Below, in pieces: positions 28,116 through 33,324 of a DNA stretch of 33,324 bases. How positions within the stretch are numbered: position 1 is the stretch's first letter; each line of letters opens with the position of its first letter. The notes beneath the pieces are model-generated. The model was not told where the DNA came from. It worked only from the letters and a program-made list of their open reading frames with translations, and did not search any database. This DNA comes from a virus (Duplodnaviria; Heunggongvirae; Uroviricota; Caudoviricetes). A program made the translations under genes and the position numbers. The stretch is taken from positions 1-33,324 of the IMG/VR virus record IMGVR_UViG_2778261568_000008. The stretch is one strand, 5' to 3'.

Positions 28116-28233
28116 ACCAACCTCCTTAGTTTTTCGCAGGATACCATGAAAAAAGTAAACATCTTTTGCCTACTTCACATTTGAATGGTTTGTCATTAGG
28201 ATGTTTCCGGTTTTTTCAAATATGGAAATTGAT

Positions 28234-28653
28234 ATGAAGAGGATTATCGGCGTTGTTGCTGGCGCTATATTGTTATCTGGGTGCGCAACTATTGTTGGTG
28301 ACGAAACACAGCTCGTGCAAGTGAACAGCAATCCTTCCGGTGCGAGCTTTAAAGTAAAAGACGAATCAGGCGTGATTGTTGCGCAAGGCAAGACCCCGCA
28401 AGGAGTAAGTCTTGCCAAGTCAGATGGTAGTTATTTTGGCAAAAAGAGCTACCAGATCACTATGGAAAAGGATGGGTACGAACCAGTTACCCTGCCAATC
28501 AAAGCCAATGCTAATGGTTGGTATATTGGTGGAAACCTTGTGTTTGGTGGGTTAATTGGTTGGCTTGCTGTAGATCCTTTTAATGGTGGGATGTATACCT
28601 TGAAGCCAAAAGAGGCAAACGCATCTCTTATACCATCAACAAAGCAAGACTAA
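28234..28653 (+). CDS. Lipoprotein (about 139 aa, lipobox LSGC)
   Basis: Signal peptide MKRIIGVVAGAILLSGC; start may instead be the ATG at 28222 or 28201. Confidence 0.75.
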   Translation: MKRIIGVVAGAILLSGCATIVGDETQLVQVNSNPSGASFKVKDESGVIVAQGKTPQGVSLAKSDGSYFGKKSYQITMEKDGYEPVTLPIKANANGWYIGGNLVFGGLIGWLAVDPFNGGMYTLKPKEANASLIPSTKQD

Positions 28654-29173: not shown

Positions 29174-29176
29174 AGT

Positions 29177-29246
29177 TGAAGCCCCAACTGCGGGAACAGT
29201 CAGGGCTTCGGTTGTCAGTAAATCCGTGGAGAAAAACCAACATGAA
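29177..29246 (-). ncRNA. Possible sar-type antisense RNA across the arc-ant junction
   Basis: In P22 a short antisense RNA covers the ant RBS; the same intercistronic arrangement and a GAAGCCC / GGGCTTC inverted repeat (29178-29209) are present. Boundaries are approximate. Confidence 0.3.
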
Positions 29247-30144
29247 TAGTATAGCAATTTTAGAAGCAGTGAACACCTCTTACGTACCATTCAACGGTCA
29301 GCAAATTATCACCGCCATGGCTGCCGGAGTTGCATACGTTGCGATGAAGCCAATCGTTGAAAACCTTGGAATGAGTTGGGGTACTCAGCAACAAAAACTT
29401 ATGAAACAACTAGATAAGTTCAACTGTATTCATATGAATATGGTTGCCGCTGATGGGAAGCTTCGTAAGCTACTCTGCCTTCCTTTGAAGAAGTTAAATG
29501 GATGGCTGTTCAGCATCAACCCTGAGAAAGTTCGAGCTGACATCCGCGATAAACTGATTCAGTACCAGGAAGAATGCTTTACTGTACTGCATGACTACTG
29601 GACAAAGGGAAAGGCAGAAAATGCACGTAAGAAAACATCTGTTGATGACAGGACTCCGCTTCGTGATGCTGTAAATATGCTAGTCAGCAAAAAGCATCTA
29701 ATGTACCCAGAAGCTTATGCAATGATTCATCAGCGTTTCAATGTGGAAAGTATTGAAGAGCTTGATGCATCTCAGATACCGCAAGCCGTAGAGTACATCC
29801 ACAGGGTAGTGCTTGAAGGTGAGTTCATCGGCAAACAAGAGAAGAAAACCAACGAGCTTTCTGCAAAAGAAGCAAACAGCCTTGTATGGCTATGGGATTA
29901 TGCCAACCGCTCACAGGCATTATTCCGCGAACTGTATCCGGCGCTGAAACAAATTCAATCGAACTATTCCGGCAGATGTCATGACTGCGGTTATGAGTTC
30001 TCCCGTATTATCGATATAGCGAGAGACGTTTTAATCAATCACTCACGAGATGTTGATATCAATGAGCCAGACGGACCAACGAATCTTTCCGCATGGATGA
30101 GACTTAAGAATAAAGAATTACCTCCTTCAGTACATAACTACTGA
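29242..30144 (+). CDS. ant: Antirepressor Ant (P22 type)
   Basis: 300 aa matching my recollection of P22 Ant; GGAG RBS before the ATG at 29242. Confidence 0.9.
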
Positions 30145-30162
30145 CAGATAACCAACGCAACG

Positions 30163-30187
30163 ACCCAGCTTCGGCTGGGTTTTTTTA
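30163..30187 (+). terminator. Rho-independent terminator after ant
   Basis: ACCCAGC-TTCG-GCTGGGT hairpin followed by TTTTTTT. Confidence 0.65.
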
Positions 30188-30243: not shown

Positions 30244-31680
30244 ATGTCAGATATCACCGCAAATGTTGTGGTAAGCATGCCTTCGCAACTCTTCACTATG
30301 GCTCGTTCTTTTAAAGCCGTAGCCAATGGCAAAATTTATATCGGTAAAATTGACACTGACCCAGTAAATCCTGAAAACCAGATTCAGGTTTATGTGGAGA
30401 ATGAAGACGGTTCTCACATTCCTGTTTCTCAACCAATCATCATTAACGCCGCTGGTTACCCTGTATATAACGGACAGATTGCCAAGTTCGTAACTGTGCA
30501 AGGCCATTCTATGGCTGTTTATGATGCGTATGGTACACAGCAGTTCTATTTTCCGAATGTGCTGAAGTATGACCCGGATCAGTTAAGAGTAGTTTTGACT
30601 GGACAGTCTGGTGATGGACTTAATAATTTTTATGCTGGCTCAGGATGGACTGGTTCAGATGCAGCTGGTGACAATATTTATAACAATGAAACTATCATAT
30701 ATAAAAATGCTACACGACAGAGATTCTCCATACCAGAAACACCAATTCCAGATCCCATTATTTGGCTGGAAAAAATTAGTTCTGCAACTAGGGATGACGG
30801 CATCAAACGATGGGATCAGGGGGTAATTTATAACTCTTTGCGCAAGGTGTCAGGAAGTGCATATACATGCACAACTACAAGTGTTGCTAAGCATGAGGGA
30901 GGGAATGGGCATTCAATTGGTCACCACATGCGTGGAGAATCAAGAAATCCGCAAGCCGAAACATGGGGGGGGTGGTCATATGGTGCAGTATTAGGAGATG
31001 CAGTGCAGAATGGAGCGATTAGCACTATTGCACATGAATTTAATCTGAATAATCGAGGTCCCGATAAAGGATGGATGGAGAATGCACAGCAAGGATCTGT
31101 AAGAGGGTTGGTATGTGTAACTCAGGATAAAAGCAATCCAGTAACACAGATGATTACCATCGGAAGAGGGAGTGAAGCTCCAAATGGTTATATCTGGACA
31201 GGAATGTTGTTTAGAGGTAATTCTATTTCCACTCCAACAGAGGAACTAACCGAGGTAGGTAATGGCGAATACATCAGACTTGAGGGATCTCTATCATCTA
31301 GAGCTGCAAACGGCATTAGATTTAGAACAAATTATTTTAGGAGTGGAATTTCATTTTCTGAAGCTGGATTTTCAAACAACTGCGCAATTTTGATGGGCGA
31401 CAATCAACGAATTACGGTAGGAACGGGCCCGGCAAATACAACACATTTGAGTTTCAACAGGGCTGAGAACTGGGCTAACTTCAACAACTTAAGAATACGA
31501 CTTAATGGCAATCAAGTTATTTCAGAGAGGAGGACGGGATGGGGATCGCCAACCGGCACCGTATCCCGAGCAGCATTTAACTCTGGAACAATAACTCACG
31601 AAGATTTAGCAAAGGTAGTTGCAGCATTAATTCAGGACTTACATGCTTCGACCGGGCATGGATTAATTGGTTTAACTTAA
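30244..31680 (+). CDS. Tailspike protein: P22 gp9-type N-terminal head-binding domain plus a different C-terminal receptor-binding domain
   Basis: N-terminal 110 aa ([11 protein letters not shown] ... VLKYDPDQ) resemble the P22 tailspike head-binding domain; the remaining 370 aa do not resemble the P22 beta-helix. Confidence 0.85.
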
Positions 31681-31692
31681 CAGGACAATAAA

Positions 31693-31854
31693 ATGGATAA
31701 GCAAACTATTCAGAATATCATGCAGTTTATGCTTCGCGTAAATCTTAGCGGTCATGAAGTTCCTGCTTTTAATGCTTCAATGAATGCATTGCAGGCAGAA
31801 TTAGATAGCCCTATCGAATCTCTTCACGAGGTAAAGAATGGCACTGACGAATGA
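31693..31854 (+). CDS. Small hypothetical protein (53 aa)
   Basis: ATG ORF after the tailspike; overlaps the next ORF by 17 nt. Not in the ORF track. Confidence 0.35.
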   Translation: MDKQTIQNIMQFMLRVNLSGHEVPAFNASMNALQAELDSPIESLHEVKNGTDE

Positions 31855-32080
31855 TAATGAAGGATCTGTTTATATTCGCGTTGAACTGCCAAGAGTGCAC
31901 GGAAAGTACCGTGCACAATACGATCTCATTCAGTATATTGACCATCCAATAACCGGCGAAAAAGCACAGATAGACCGTCAAACAATGGAATGCGATTATG
32001 ACCTCGCTGGTCCTAATATCTTCGAGCAGTGCTATAAACATGCGAAGACAGAACTTCCTTATGCGACAATTGATTGCTAG
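31838..32080 (+). CDS. Small hypothetical protein (80 aa)
   Basis: ORF from the track; AT-rich region. Confidence 0.4.
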   Translation: MALTNDNEGSVYIRVELPRVHGKYRAQYDLIQYIDHPITGEKAQIDRQTMECDYDLAGPNIFEQCYKHAKTELPYATIDC

Positions 32081-32115
32081 CTGAAAATAATGGCAATTCT
32101 AAGGCATGGGAAGGT

Positions 32116-32147
32116 AAAAAAGGCGGGATTTCCCGCCTTATTTTATT
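32116..32147. terminator. Bidirectional terminator between the small ORFs and the convergent glycosyltransferase gene
   Basis: GGCGGGA-TT-TCCCGCC hairpin flanked by A-rich and T-rich runs on both sides. Confidence 0.6.
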
Positions 32148-33324
32148 GGAAGTATGACTCTGTTTTCTTTCTGTTGAGTTTTGAACCAGTGCCTTTATAT
32201 CCGGCAGTAACATGAAATTCCCACTCGTTACGCTGCAATGCATCTTTGGTTAATCCGTAGAATCTCACTAAATATCCGCAGTCCAGATTGTAATCTGGGA
32301 ACTTCGCTACAACATCTGAGCGCTGAATTTTTTCCTCCAGAAAACCGGGCAGGATCTCCTGTCCTATGCGTAAGTTAAAGAACTGCTGCTCAACGCCCTC
32401 AGTGGGCACGCACCATCCTGTGAAAATGCATGACCCGTCATCTTCTCTCACCCTGTCTACGTAACCATGCCACGTTATTCTACTTTCATCGCGCTCAACC
32501 GTTAATGCTTGCTCCAGATTCAGCCCCATACCCTTCAGGTATTCATAAACTCCATCCATAATAAAGAACTTAGACGGGTTGATAGATTTCGAAGCTGCAT
32601 GCATATCGTAATATTCAGTCTGAGTCATCAGGAACTTTTTGACTAAATGATGTCTCGCCCCTTTGAATGCCTTCAGAGCCTCAATATCATTGACGTCAAC
32701 AAGACCCTCCAGTTTATTCCTGGCGCTGGCGATATAGTCATCATAGTTCTTATGGTGGAAGTGAAGATAAATGATATCCGTATCAACTTGCTGGCCTGAC
32801 TCAACCTCACCGCGATGGAAGCCATTACCCAGCGCAGTGATTCTTGATTTAGGGAAGAACACTTTCTCAGGCTTAGGGCTTAACGCAAATTCTTTTGGGT
32901 TAAGTGGATGGTTGCCATATGTATATTTAATTTTAAATGTGGCGTCGGTATCTATATATTTTGATAATTCATTCAACACATCATTTTTAGACAGCGACAC
33001 CTTACCCTTTGAAAATTCAACGCCGACAAACTCATCACAATCAAGTGGCATCATAAAATCATAGCCATGAGAATTCTTTAATTCTTCGTATTTGTCTACG
33101 AAGTAGATATGTCTGGTATTGAAATCATCAAAGGTGCTTCTGTCATAAACGACATTCATCCCTTTTCCCGAATATTCCTTCAGAATGTTAAGGCATCGCT
33201 CATCTGCTGACCCGTTATCGTAGACGTATAAATTTTCAAGGCCAAAAAGCTCAGCATGATGCAGTATCCATGGCTCAAGAAGCCGGTACTCATCCTTTTG
33301 CATCATCAAAACAGCAACTTTCAT
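32143..33324 (-). CDS. Family-2 (GT-A fold) glycosyltransferase, 393 aa
   Basis: VYDNGSAD and DCDEF (DxD) motifs; no obvious TM segments; the start codon is the last three bases of the window, so the promoter lies outside. Confidence 0.85.
   Translation of the reverse strand: MKVAVLMMQKDEYRLLEPWILHHAELFGLENLYVYDNGSADERCLNILKEYSGKGMNVVYDRSTFDDFNTRHIYFVDKYEELKNSHGYDFMMPLDCDEFVGVEFSKGKVSLSKNDVLNELSKYIDTDATFKIKYTYGNHPLNPKEFALSPKPEKVFFPKSRITALGNGFHRGEVESGQQVDTDIIYLHFHHKNYDDYIASARNKLEGLVDVNDIEALKAFKGARHHLVKKFLMTQTEYYDMHAASKSINPSKFFIMDGVYEYLKGMGLNLEQALTVERDESRITWHGYVDRVREDDGSCIFTGWCVPTEGVEQQFFNLRIGQEILPGFLEEKIQRSDVVAKFPDYNLDCGYLVRFYGLTKDALQRNEWEFHVTAGYKGTGSKLNRKKTESYFQ

Follow-up and report, generated by a model that had tools for sequence, protein, structure and literature searches.

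A lone, predicted cytoplasmic glycosyltransferase is cargo of a P22-like Escherichia coli prophage and may modify a host surface glycan

The Caudoviricetes record IMGVR_UViG_2778261568_000008 of IMG/VR (positions 1 to 33,324; this whole stretch of 33,324 nucleotides is the window referred to throughout) ends with two small overlapping open reading frames (ORFs) and a gene for a glycosyltransferase of 393 amino acids (aa), which is transcribed towards the tailspike gene. We conclude that the glycosyltransferase gene is prophage cargo, a self-contained accessory gene ("moron") of a P22-like prophage integrated at argW. We consider it moderately probable that this single enzyme modifies a surface glycan of the host from the cytoplasm. 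This is the most economical reading because the slot between tailspike and integrase holds seroconversion genes in related phages. Transcription of the gene would begin at a promoter of its own, located just beyond the window, and end at a bidirectional terminator; the gene would thus be expressed in the lysogen. The enzyme would use a nucleotide sugar and add the sugar to a lipid-linked surface glycan on the cytoplasmic face of the inner membrane. Alteration of a surface recognised by this phage family could result in receptor modification, superinfection protection or antigenic change, by a one-enzyme alternative to the three-protein, periplasmic GtrABC route.

The evidence for prophage cargo comes largely from beyond the window. 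Megablast located the entire 1.7-kb block in three complete E. coli chromosomes. In strains PK12 and 19KM1803 the block lies inside a P22-like prophage, in the order tailspike, 53-aa ORF, 80-aa ORF, glycosyltransferase (reverse), an intergenic region with a LexA box, 79-aa ORF, 104-aa ORF, intS (reverse), tRNA-Arg (argW) and yfdC; past the glycosyltransferase, the 79-aa and 104-aa ORFs are on the plus strand and intS is on the minus strand. In strain E3 the block, at 92% DNA identity, terminates a siphovirus-type prophage (tape measure, TipJ) and adjoins yciB. Six IMG/VR viral contigs also carry the glycosyltransferase gene, at 84-98% identity. On IMG/VR contig 3300045988_043465 (locus L007, 6395-7575) the gene has a 1-nt frameshift near codon 23 and is either a pseudogene or affected by a sequencing error. 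The ATG of the gene is formed by the final three bases of the window, which places its upstream region beyond the window edge. That the gene belongs to a host polysaccharide operon running past that edge is an alternative to which the original prediction, made from the window alone, had itself pointed. Past position 33324, we found instead a 175-bp spacer, two small phage genes, intS and argW. Because the next genes in PK12 and 19KM1803 are small phage genes, intS and tRNA-Arg, a host operon is effectively excluded and must be considered extremely improbable. The prophage end beside yciB in E3 and the six viral contigs argue in the same direction, and no paralog of the glycosyltransferase was found in the O-antigen or kps loci of the hosts.

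The gene also has the hallmarks of a moron, namely its own terminator and a deviant base composition inside the prophage. The bidirectional terminator on which the glycosyltransferase and tailspike genes had been predicted to converge is a hairpin scored on both strands (AAGGCGGGA-TTT-CCCGCCTT), with an 8-bp stem containing six G-C pairs, a 4-nt loop and a T-run on each side. From the stop codon of the glycosyltransferase gene the hairpin is 3 nt away, and from that of the 80-aa ORF 39 nt. The G+C content (GC) of positions 31693-33324 is 41.7%, whereas the window as a whole has 47.3% and the structural genes have 49.6%; values as low as this occur in 0.3% of equal-sized windows. The description of the region as AT-rich therefore holds, although the right arm from ~27.7 kb onward is all at 42-43% GC, which makes the region low, not uniquely low. 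Within the wider locus, GC is 41.8% for the glycosyltransferase gene and 55% for the adjoining 79-aa/104-aa pair. Comparison with relatives yields ratios of nonsynonymous to synonymous divergence (dN/dS) of 0.06-0.11 for the glycosyltransferase gene, with synonymous divergence (dS) of up to 1.25, and this purifying selection indicates that the gene is functional. For the 53-aa ORF the ratio is 0.15-0.19, and for the 80-aa ORF dN is 0.08-0.11 with saturated synonymous sites. By these sequence measures, all three ORFs are real genes.

In PK12 and 19KM1803 the gene sits at the junction of tailspike and int/att of a temperate phage. P22-like and Shigella phages classically have their serotype-conversion genes in this gap between tailspike and integrase; in related phages such genes are found near int/att, and attP lies between int and xis (10.1101/2021.04.09.439263). 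The original prediction had argued that the locus is not a canonical gtrABC cluster, and this view is upheld: neither the window nor the 2 kb that follow it contain a GtrA-, GtrB- or GtrC-like gene, and none lies between tailspike and intS in loci L001, L002 and L016. There is no adjacent GtrA (a small flippase with four transmembrane segments), no polytopic GtrC and no GtrB-type undecaprenyl-phosphate (Und-P) glucosyltransferase with C-terminal membrane helices. Since the enzyme is soluble, has no membrane segment and has no GtrA/B/C nearby, it would have to act on the cytoplasmic face with a nucleotide sugar.

The protein is identical to WP_096842059.1, which is annotated merely as "glycosyltransferase family 2 protein". 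At 90% identity it clusters in a group of 148 sequences, nearly all from E. coli, that are named either in this way or "hypothetical". The first claim made for it, that of a soluble family-2 glycosyltransferase, was confirmed when the hidden Markov model classification suggested at the time was carried out. Pfam family PF13704 (Glyco_tranf_2_4) matches residues 11-106 with 36 bits against a cut-off of 27.5 (E 1e-8); the GT92 family (PF01697) reaches 14.8 against a threshold of 23, which leaves the protein outside that family. The Kyte-Doolittle average over 19 residues nowhere exceeds 0.41, which predicts no membrane segment, and none of the three products of the region (glycosyltransferase, 53 aa and 80 aa) has a hydrophobic or membrane segment. 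A search of 1.8 billion cluster representatives returned 1,048 relatives at E <= 0.001; among the 150 matches listed, none exceeds 45% identity. A word-indexed search gave 34 relatives, and in the resulting alignment of 35 sequences (A1) the invariant positions are D36, the D95-C96-D97-E98-F99 block, H170, K204 and H226. The DXD motif binds the metal and the nucleotide sugar in metal-dependent GT-A enzymes. With the alignment as input, AlphaFold2 produced a model with a predicted local distance difference test score (pLDDT) of 90; from the single sequence, the score was 35 and the model unusable, and we therefore used the former. It has a GT-A domain (residues ~1-250), a helical linker and a C-terminal beta-sandwich (~283-375), which may serve in acceptor binding or oligomerisation. 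Foldseek ranked RmlT and TarS, which decorate wall teichoic acid, at the top, followed by ThuS/SunS, TarP and SpsA. From family and model, we predict a soluble cytoplasmic GT-A enzyme of the PF13704 family with a GT92-like fold.

Several searches placed the enzyme no more closely. A sequence search of the PDB gave no match, PHROGs, NCBIfam and PADLOC have no family for it and lend no support to a role in defence, and a peptide-pattern scan of GTDB species representatives found no relative. The BFVD viral structures contain just distant GT-A proteins of giant viruses or uncultured phages, with identities of at most 21%. Neither the region nor the glycosyltransferase matched any of 50,697 phage records by megablast and tblastn; the gene is absent from sequenced reference phages.

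An indication of function comes from distant homologs. Those with 29-39% identity and the same two-domain build are all encoded directly downstream of a ~730-810-aa glycosyltransferase family 2 (GT2) protein, in polysaccharide clusters (L009-L011, L012, L013, L026 and L027). Where domain matches are listed (L009-L011, L026, L027), this large protein has two GT2 Pfam matches. Loci L009-L011, three metagenome contigs, include genes for Ugd, a nucleotidyltransferase and a sulfotransferase; L026 and L027 are two further metagenome contigs with the homolog again downstream of the large GT2 protein. Loci L012 and L013 are capsule-like polysaccharide loci on the E. coli plasmids NZ_AP027623.1 and NZ_ON934553.1 (IncY, IncHI1B), with an ATP-binding cassette (ABC) permease and ATPase, a KpsE-like protein, a ~910-aa methyltransferase, several glycosyltransferases, Ugd and rfbB. 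They hold the closest E. coli paralogs of the enzyme (29-36% identity), and have no DNA similarity to the capsule locus of 19KM1803. These ~400-aa PF13704 homologs share with the prophage enzyme the GT-A domain, the beta-sandwich and the invariant residues, but they are encoded in operons with GT2 and sugar-nucleotide genes, in contrast to the solitary prophage gene. Together, the contexts of the homologs and the resemblance to RmlT, TarS and TarP suggest that the enzyme decorates a glycan during its assembly on the cytoplasmic face.

SunS is a prophage-derived S-glycosyltransferase, and an enzyme of this kind could instead glycosylate a protein or peptide in the cytoplasm, the substrate being a phage protein, the cysteine-containing 80-aa product or a host surface protein. 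We consider this improbable. The structural match is to a generic GT-A core, at 9-13% identity, and all informative homolog contexts are polysaccharide clusters. As to the 80-aa product, the glycosyltransferase and the small ORFs are convergent and not co-transcribed. Moreover, the enzyme occurs without the small ORFs in L006, and the small ORFs occur without the enzyme in lytic phages and in prophages with an IS1 deletion.

These distributions bear on the "module" of the original prediction, which had correctly described two overlapping ORFs of 53 and 80 aa between glycosyltransferase and tailspike, and had counted them as cargo of the same unit. The comparison of loci shows that this module is two or three separate units: the tailspike with the small ORFs, and the glycosyltransferase beside the 79-aa/104-aa pair. 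The 53-aa ORF has a Shine-Dalgarno-like sequence 12 nt past the tailspike stop codon; the two small ORFs overlap by 17 nt, and such a sequence precedes each of them. From this arrangement, the 53-aa ORF appears to be co-transcribed with the tailspike gene. The first 38 residues of the 53-aa product are nearly invariant (window 31693-31854, L015 5095-5247, L032 3495-3653), and the ORF is also found 3' of related tail-spike genes in two lytic phages, the siphovirus Kagunavirus LM02P1 and the myovirus Phapecoctavirus nieznany, where the identity of the adjacent receptor-binding domain is 65% and 27%, respectively. In L007 identity falls to 31% for the tailspike domain but is 75-80% for the two small ORFs. 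The 80-aa ORF is 80-100% identical in six related loci (L001, L002, L003, L007, L008 and L016). In L004, L005 and L014 a different small ORF replaces it and the tail of the 53-aa ORF differs; just a C-terminal remnant of the 80-aa ORF is kept in L004 and L005. Locus L006 lacks both small ORFs and has an unrelated receptor-binding protein of 832 aa next to the glycosyltransferase. The 53-aa and 80-aa ORFs are thus in the tailspike operon and are not partners of the glycosyltransferase; they possibly belong to the tailspike as assembly or accessory factors, and the 53-aa product could be a tailspike chaperone or partner, or its ORF a conserved recombination anchor. A C-terminal PYAxxIDC motif is common to the 80-aa product and that of the second small ORF of phage nieznany. 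In Pfam, PHROGs, NCBIfam and PADLOC, the two small ORFs matched no family beyond two marginal hits, phrog_18977 for the 53-aa ORF (E 4e-4) and PADLOC REase_II for the 80-aa ORF (E 0.0099).

In addition, the tailspike persists with a variant of the 53-aa ORF in three other E. coli prophages. We inspected two of them, EF5-18-41 and CFSAN061770, and in both an IS1 remnant replaces the glycosyltransferase gene and the 79-aa ORF (L014 7280-7770 and L034 3780-4280, respectively); in EF5-18-41 the scar also truncates the 104-aa ORF, as the replacement reaches its middle. The third, EP91A, probably has the same replacement. By contrast with the small ORFs, the real partner of the glycosyltransferase is outside the window: the LexA-box region and the 79-aa and 104-aa ORFs, to which the gene is joined in all loci whose contig extends that far (that of L004 stops ~280 bp upstream of the gene), in podovirus-type and siphovirus-type prophages alike. 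With GC of 42% and 55%, the glycosyltransferase gene and this pair are of different origin. The prophage end therefore consists of three independently exchangeable pieces, the tailspike domain with the small ORFs, the glycosyltransferase and the LexA-controlled pair, which are shuffled among podovirus-type, siphovirus-type and even lytic phages.

How is the glycosyltransferase gene expressed? Just past position 33324, PK12 has a 175-bp intergenic region followed by the 79-aa ORF (phrog_3893) and the 104-aa ORF (phrog_3469; L001 13726-14454). The intergenic region is conserved in eight loci, to a greater degree than the synonymous sites of the gene, even where dS is >1. On the coding strand, the ATG is preceded at ~30 nt by an extended -10 element (TGaTATATT) and at 8 nt by the Shine-Dalgarno sequence AAGGA. 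From this conservation and these motifs, we predict with moderate confidence that the gene has an autonomous and probably constitutive promoter. The search past the window edge for partner genes and a promoter, proposed with the original prediction, thus returned the conserved extended -10 and no Gtr partner. No tandem repeats of the type associated with phase variation were found in the gene.

A perfect consensus LexA box (TACTGTATATAAAAACAGTA), identical in eight of eight aligned loci, lies ~140 bp from the glycosyltransferase ATG; it immediately precedes the 79-aa ORF, whose promoter it overlaps. No LexA box was found inside the window. The 104-aa product is UmuD'-like and starts at GFPSPAGDYVEQR, the UmuD' N-terminus; the SGDSM catalytic motif was not seen in it. 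Hence, the 79-aa and 104-aa ORFs look like an SOS-controlled gene pair. Phage mEp390 (NC_019721.1, L033 3624-4536) also has this pair; there, dinI occupies the divergent slot of the glycosyltransferase, and the spacer of 87 bp has a single LexA box at its centre. The pair is also found in the lambdoid phages HK140 and HK225 and in some Klebsiella and Enterobacter phages. The constant linkage of the glycosyltransferase gene to an SOS-type pair, the invariant LexA box in the shared intergenic region and the identity of the mEp390 counterpart, a canonical SOS gene, would all be expected if the enzyme were co-controlled with the LexA-repressed operon and acted at induction, for example by an envelope change that spares the loss of progeny on debris or sibling cells. 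Three points leave this explanation with a small chance of being correct. The LexA box is on the promoter of the 79-aa ORF and not on the extended -10 beside the glycosyltransferase gene, the difference in GC indicates different origins, and glycan remodelling, which needs growth, fits poorly with the short window of induction.

What is the acceptor of the enzyme? We read O types from the wzx and wzy names in PGAP annotations, and capsule loci at pheV in five hosts. Strain 19KM1803 is O102, PK12 is O11 and E3 belongs to the O18 family; all three use Wzx/Wzy O-antigens. EF5-18-41, which has a 99% identical tailspike domain and lacks the glycosyltransferase, is in the O17/O44/O73/O77/O106 group. 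ABC-transporter capsule (kps) loci are present at pheV in all five hosts inspected, and their region 2 differs. The locus of 19KM1803 is group 3, and EF5-18-41 and CFSAN061770 share half of its region 2 at ~94% identity; PK12 has a group 2 locus with duplicated kpsC/S, and E3 a group 2 locus of the glycerol-phosphate type. The PK12 locus (L031 32406-49999) contains a second kpsC/kpsS-like pair beside IS630, plus a truncated kpsC.

The classical form of lysogenic conversion, implicit in the original prediction, is O-serotype conversion: a side-branch sugar would be placed on one O-unit linked to undecaprenyl pyrophosphate (Und-PP) before it is flipped by Wzx, and the tailspike would be specific for that O-antigen. 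It accords with the Wzx/Wzy O-antigens of all three hosts and with the position of the gene, since the same slot holds gtrABC or oac in P22, Sf6 and Sf101 (10.1101/2021.04.09.439263), and a review of E. coli O-antigens describes side branches for which the transferase is necessarily outside the O-antigen cluster, such as N-acetylglucosamine in O151 (PMC7685785). However, glycosyltransferases with 98-99.5% identity occur in O11, O102 and O18-family hosts, whose O-antigen clusters differ in gene content (fucose, rhamnose and others), and the near-identical tailspike domain occurs in yet another O group. In addition, the clusters with homologs have large GT2 proteins, and two have ABC transporters, with no Wzx/Wzy in the stretches shown. 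We therefore regard conversion of a single O serotype as unlikely. The broader proposal of lysogenic conversion or receptor modification remains plausible, given the slot and the status of the gene as prophage cargo, and is unproven.

One O-serogroup common to the hosts was rejected as an explanation, as the hosts are O102, O11 and O18, with the O77 group for the host that has the tailspike only. One common capsule type was likewise rejected: the group 3 region 2 is partly shared by 19KM1803, EF5-18-41 and CFSAN061770, and the loci of PK12 and E3 are group 2 but differ from each other. The distribution of the glycosyltransferase, and likewise that of the tailspike, is accounted for by neither O type nor K type. 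Because near-identical enzymes occur in O11, O102 and O18 hosts with three types of kps region 2, no single serotype-specific glycan can be their common acceptor. The candidates that remain are a conserved structure (capsule anchor, lipopolysaccharide (LPS) core or enterobacterial common antigen (ECA)), a range of glycans modified by an enzyme of broad specificity, or an acceptor that is not a glycan. Our best guess is the kps capsule or a conserved part of it, which is polymerised in the cytoplasm and exported by an ABC transporter; LPS core or ECA would come next, and a serogroup-specific O-unit last, as branching of this kind is unlikely. A bolder version, to which we give little credence, is that the enzyme modifies a structure common to unrelated O and K serotypes, such as the poly-3-deoxy-D-manno-oct-2-ulosonic acid (poly-Kdo)/lyso-phosphatidylglycerol anchor of capsules, the LPS inner core or ECA. 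This would bring about serotype-independent lysogenic conversion and superinfection protection, with the short 362-aa tailspike domain recognising the same structure and not a polymer specific to one serotype.

The tailspike has a P22-type head-binding domain up to ~30591 and a 362-aa receptor-binding domain at 30592-31680. The receptor-binding domain is of the same family, with 31-100% identity, in eight of nine related loci that carry the glycosyltransferase, a co-occurrence that, like the kps loci of all five hosts, speaks for the proposed modification. Its last ~56 aa (31510-31680) match the C-terminus of the P22 tail needle gp26 in a PDB profile search (E ~5e-9). The central 300 residues of the tailspike had no match in Pfam or in the PDB profile search, in which the matches were the head-binding domain and the gp26-like segment.

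Several of these observations weigh against a surface-glycan modification by a constitutively expressed enzyme. The hosts with near-identical enzymes differ not only in O type but also, all three, in kps region 2, and some members of the 148-sequence cluster are labelled Enterobacter hormaechei. That all five hosts have kps loci carries limited weight, as such loci occur commonly in E. coli and the five hosts do not represent independent samples. Two hosts that differ in both antigens, one O11 with a group 2 capsule and the other of the O77 group with a group 3 capsule, carry tailspike domains with 99-100% identity. Serotype therefore points to no receptor for the tailspike, which weakens the logic that the enzyme modifies this receptor. 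With respect to expression, a consensus scan for sigma-70 promoters, in which a -35 element is required, found none in front of the glycosyltransferase gene, and divergent pairing with a LexA-controlled operon means that expression could be SOS-linked rather than constitutive.

One-enzyme modification of a surface glycan, which we continue to favour, has parallels in known systems. The gtrABC loci of P22, SfV, SfX and CPS-53/KpLE1 occupy the same slot between tailspike or fibre and int/att, are likewise low-GC cargo and presumably change a surface glycan. Gtr systems differ in comprising three membrane proteins that work in the periplasm with Und-P-glucose; here there is a single soluble enzyme. 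Another parallel is CUS-3, a P22-like prophage of E. coli K1 that is integrated at argW with neuO between tailspike and integrase. Its product NeuO has a left-handed beta-helix fold, and heptanucleotide repeats in the gene cause phase variation. NeuO is a single soluble cytoplasmic enzyme that modifies an ABC-exported capsule (PMC3046976, PMC9659370), as a phase-variable O-acetyltransferase (PMC3046976, PMC13001214). Shared with the locus described here are a soluble enzyme between tailspike and int, an argW prophage, an IntS-type integrase and hosts that carry kps loci. The enzyme is not a NeuO family member, having a GT-A fold and no tandem repeats in its gene, and CUS-3 is tied to the K1 capsule, whereas the hosts here have three kps region 2 types. 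TarP (Staphylococcus aureus prophages), TarS and RmlT (Listeria monocytogenes) act on the wall teichoic acid of Gram-positive bacteria, belong to PF00535 rather than PF13704 and are 10-17% identical in sequence; the C-terminal domain of TarP drives trimerisation. The plant galactosyltransferase GalS1 of family GT92 (PDB 8d3t) is 15% identical and is a eukaryotic Golgi enzyme, from which neither donor nor linkage can be inferred. By analogy, the prophage gene may work like NeuO or TarP without belonging to either family. Coordinates of the features are given in Table 1.

Table 1. Features of the right end of the window, in window coordinates
Feature	Position	Strand	Remarks
Antirepressor gene	29176-30144		Followed by a terminator, then the tailspike gene
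Tailspike gene	30244-31680	+	478 aa from the likely true start; Pfam Head_binding, E 4e-67
53-aa ORF	31693-31854	+	Product soluble, acidic; tailspike module
80-aa ORF	31838-32080	+	Product soluble, acidic, three Cys; variable second gene of the post-tailspike pair
Bidirectional intrinsic terminator	32120-32139	both	Closes the late (tailspike) operon and the glycosyltransferase gene
Glycosyltransferase gene	32143-33324	-	393 aa, soluble
C-terminal beta-sandwich domain (predicted)	32200-32478	-	Residues ~283-375
GT-A catalytic domain (predicted)	32575-33324	-	Residues ~1-250
DXD motif, Asp95-Cys96-Asp97 (GAT TGT GAT)	33034-33042	-	Codons read directly from the sequence

Two neighbouring genes merit comment. 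For the tailspike, the internal ATG at 30244 (MSDITANVV...) is the most likely start, in place of position 30187 given in the ORF list. The 478-aa tailspike is annotated as a pseudogene ("phage head-binding domain-containing protein, incomplete") by RefSeq/PGAP in PK12, 19KM1803, EF5-18-41 and CFSAN061770; the ORF is uninterrupted in the three loci that we read (L001 10645-12081, L016 4645-6081 and L014 5645-7081). Further upstream, between the DNA-ejection genes and the mnt/arc/ant region, positions 28201-28653 encode a 150-aa ORF with a lipoprotein-type signal (...AILLSGC) and no PADLOC match. It is located approximately where P22 has sieA and, by this analogy of position, may be a candidate superinfection-exclusion lipoprotein.

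Prophage glycan remodelling shapes the serotype, the targets of vaccines and antibodies, and the host range available to phage therapy. The known routes in enterobacterial prophages are the three-protein Gtr system, membrane acyltransferases, Wzy replacement and the capsule acetyltransferase NeuO. If our proposal is correct, a lone cytoplasmic GT-A enzyme would add one more route, similar to that of TarP in S. aureus. With at least 148 recorded protein variants, mostly from E. coli, the gene is a recurrent accessory gene, and prediction of serotype from O-antigen and kps loci alone would miss the modification.

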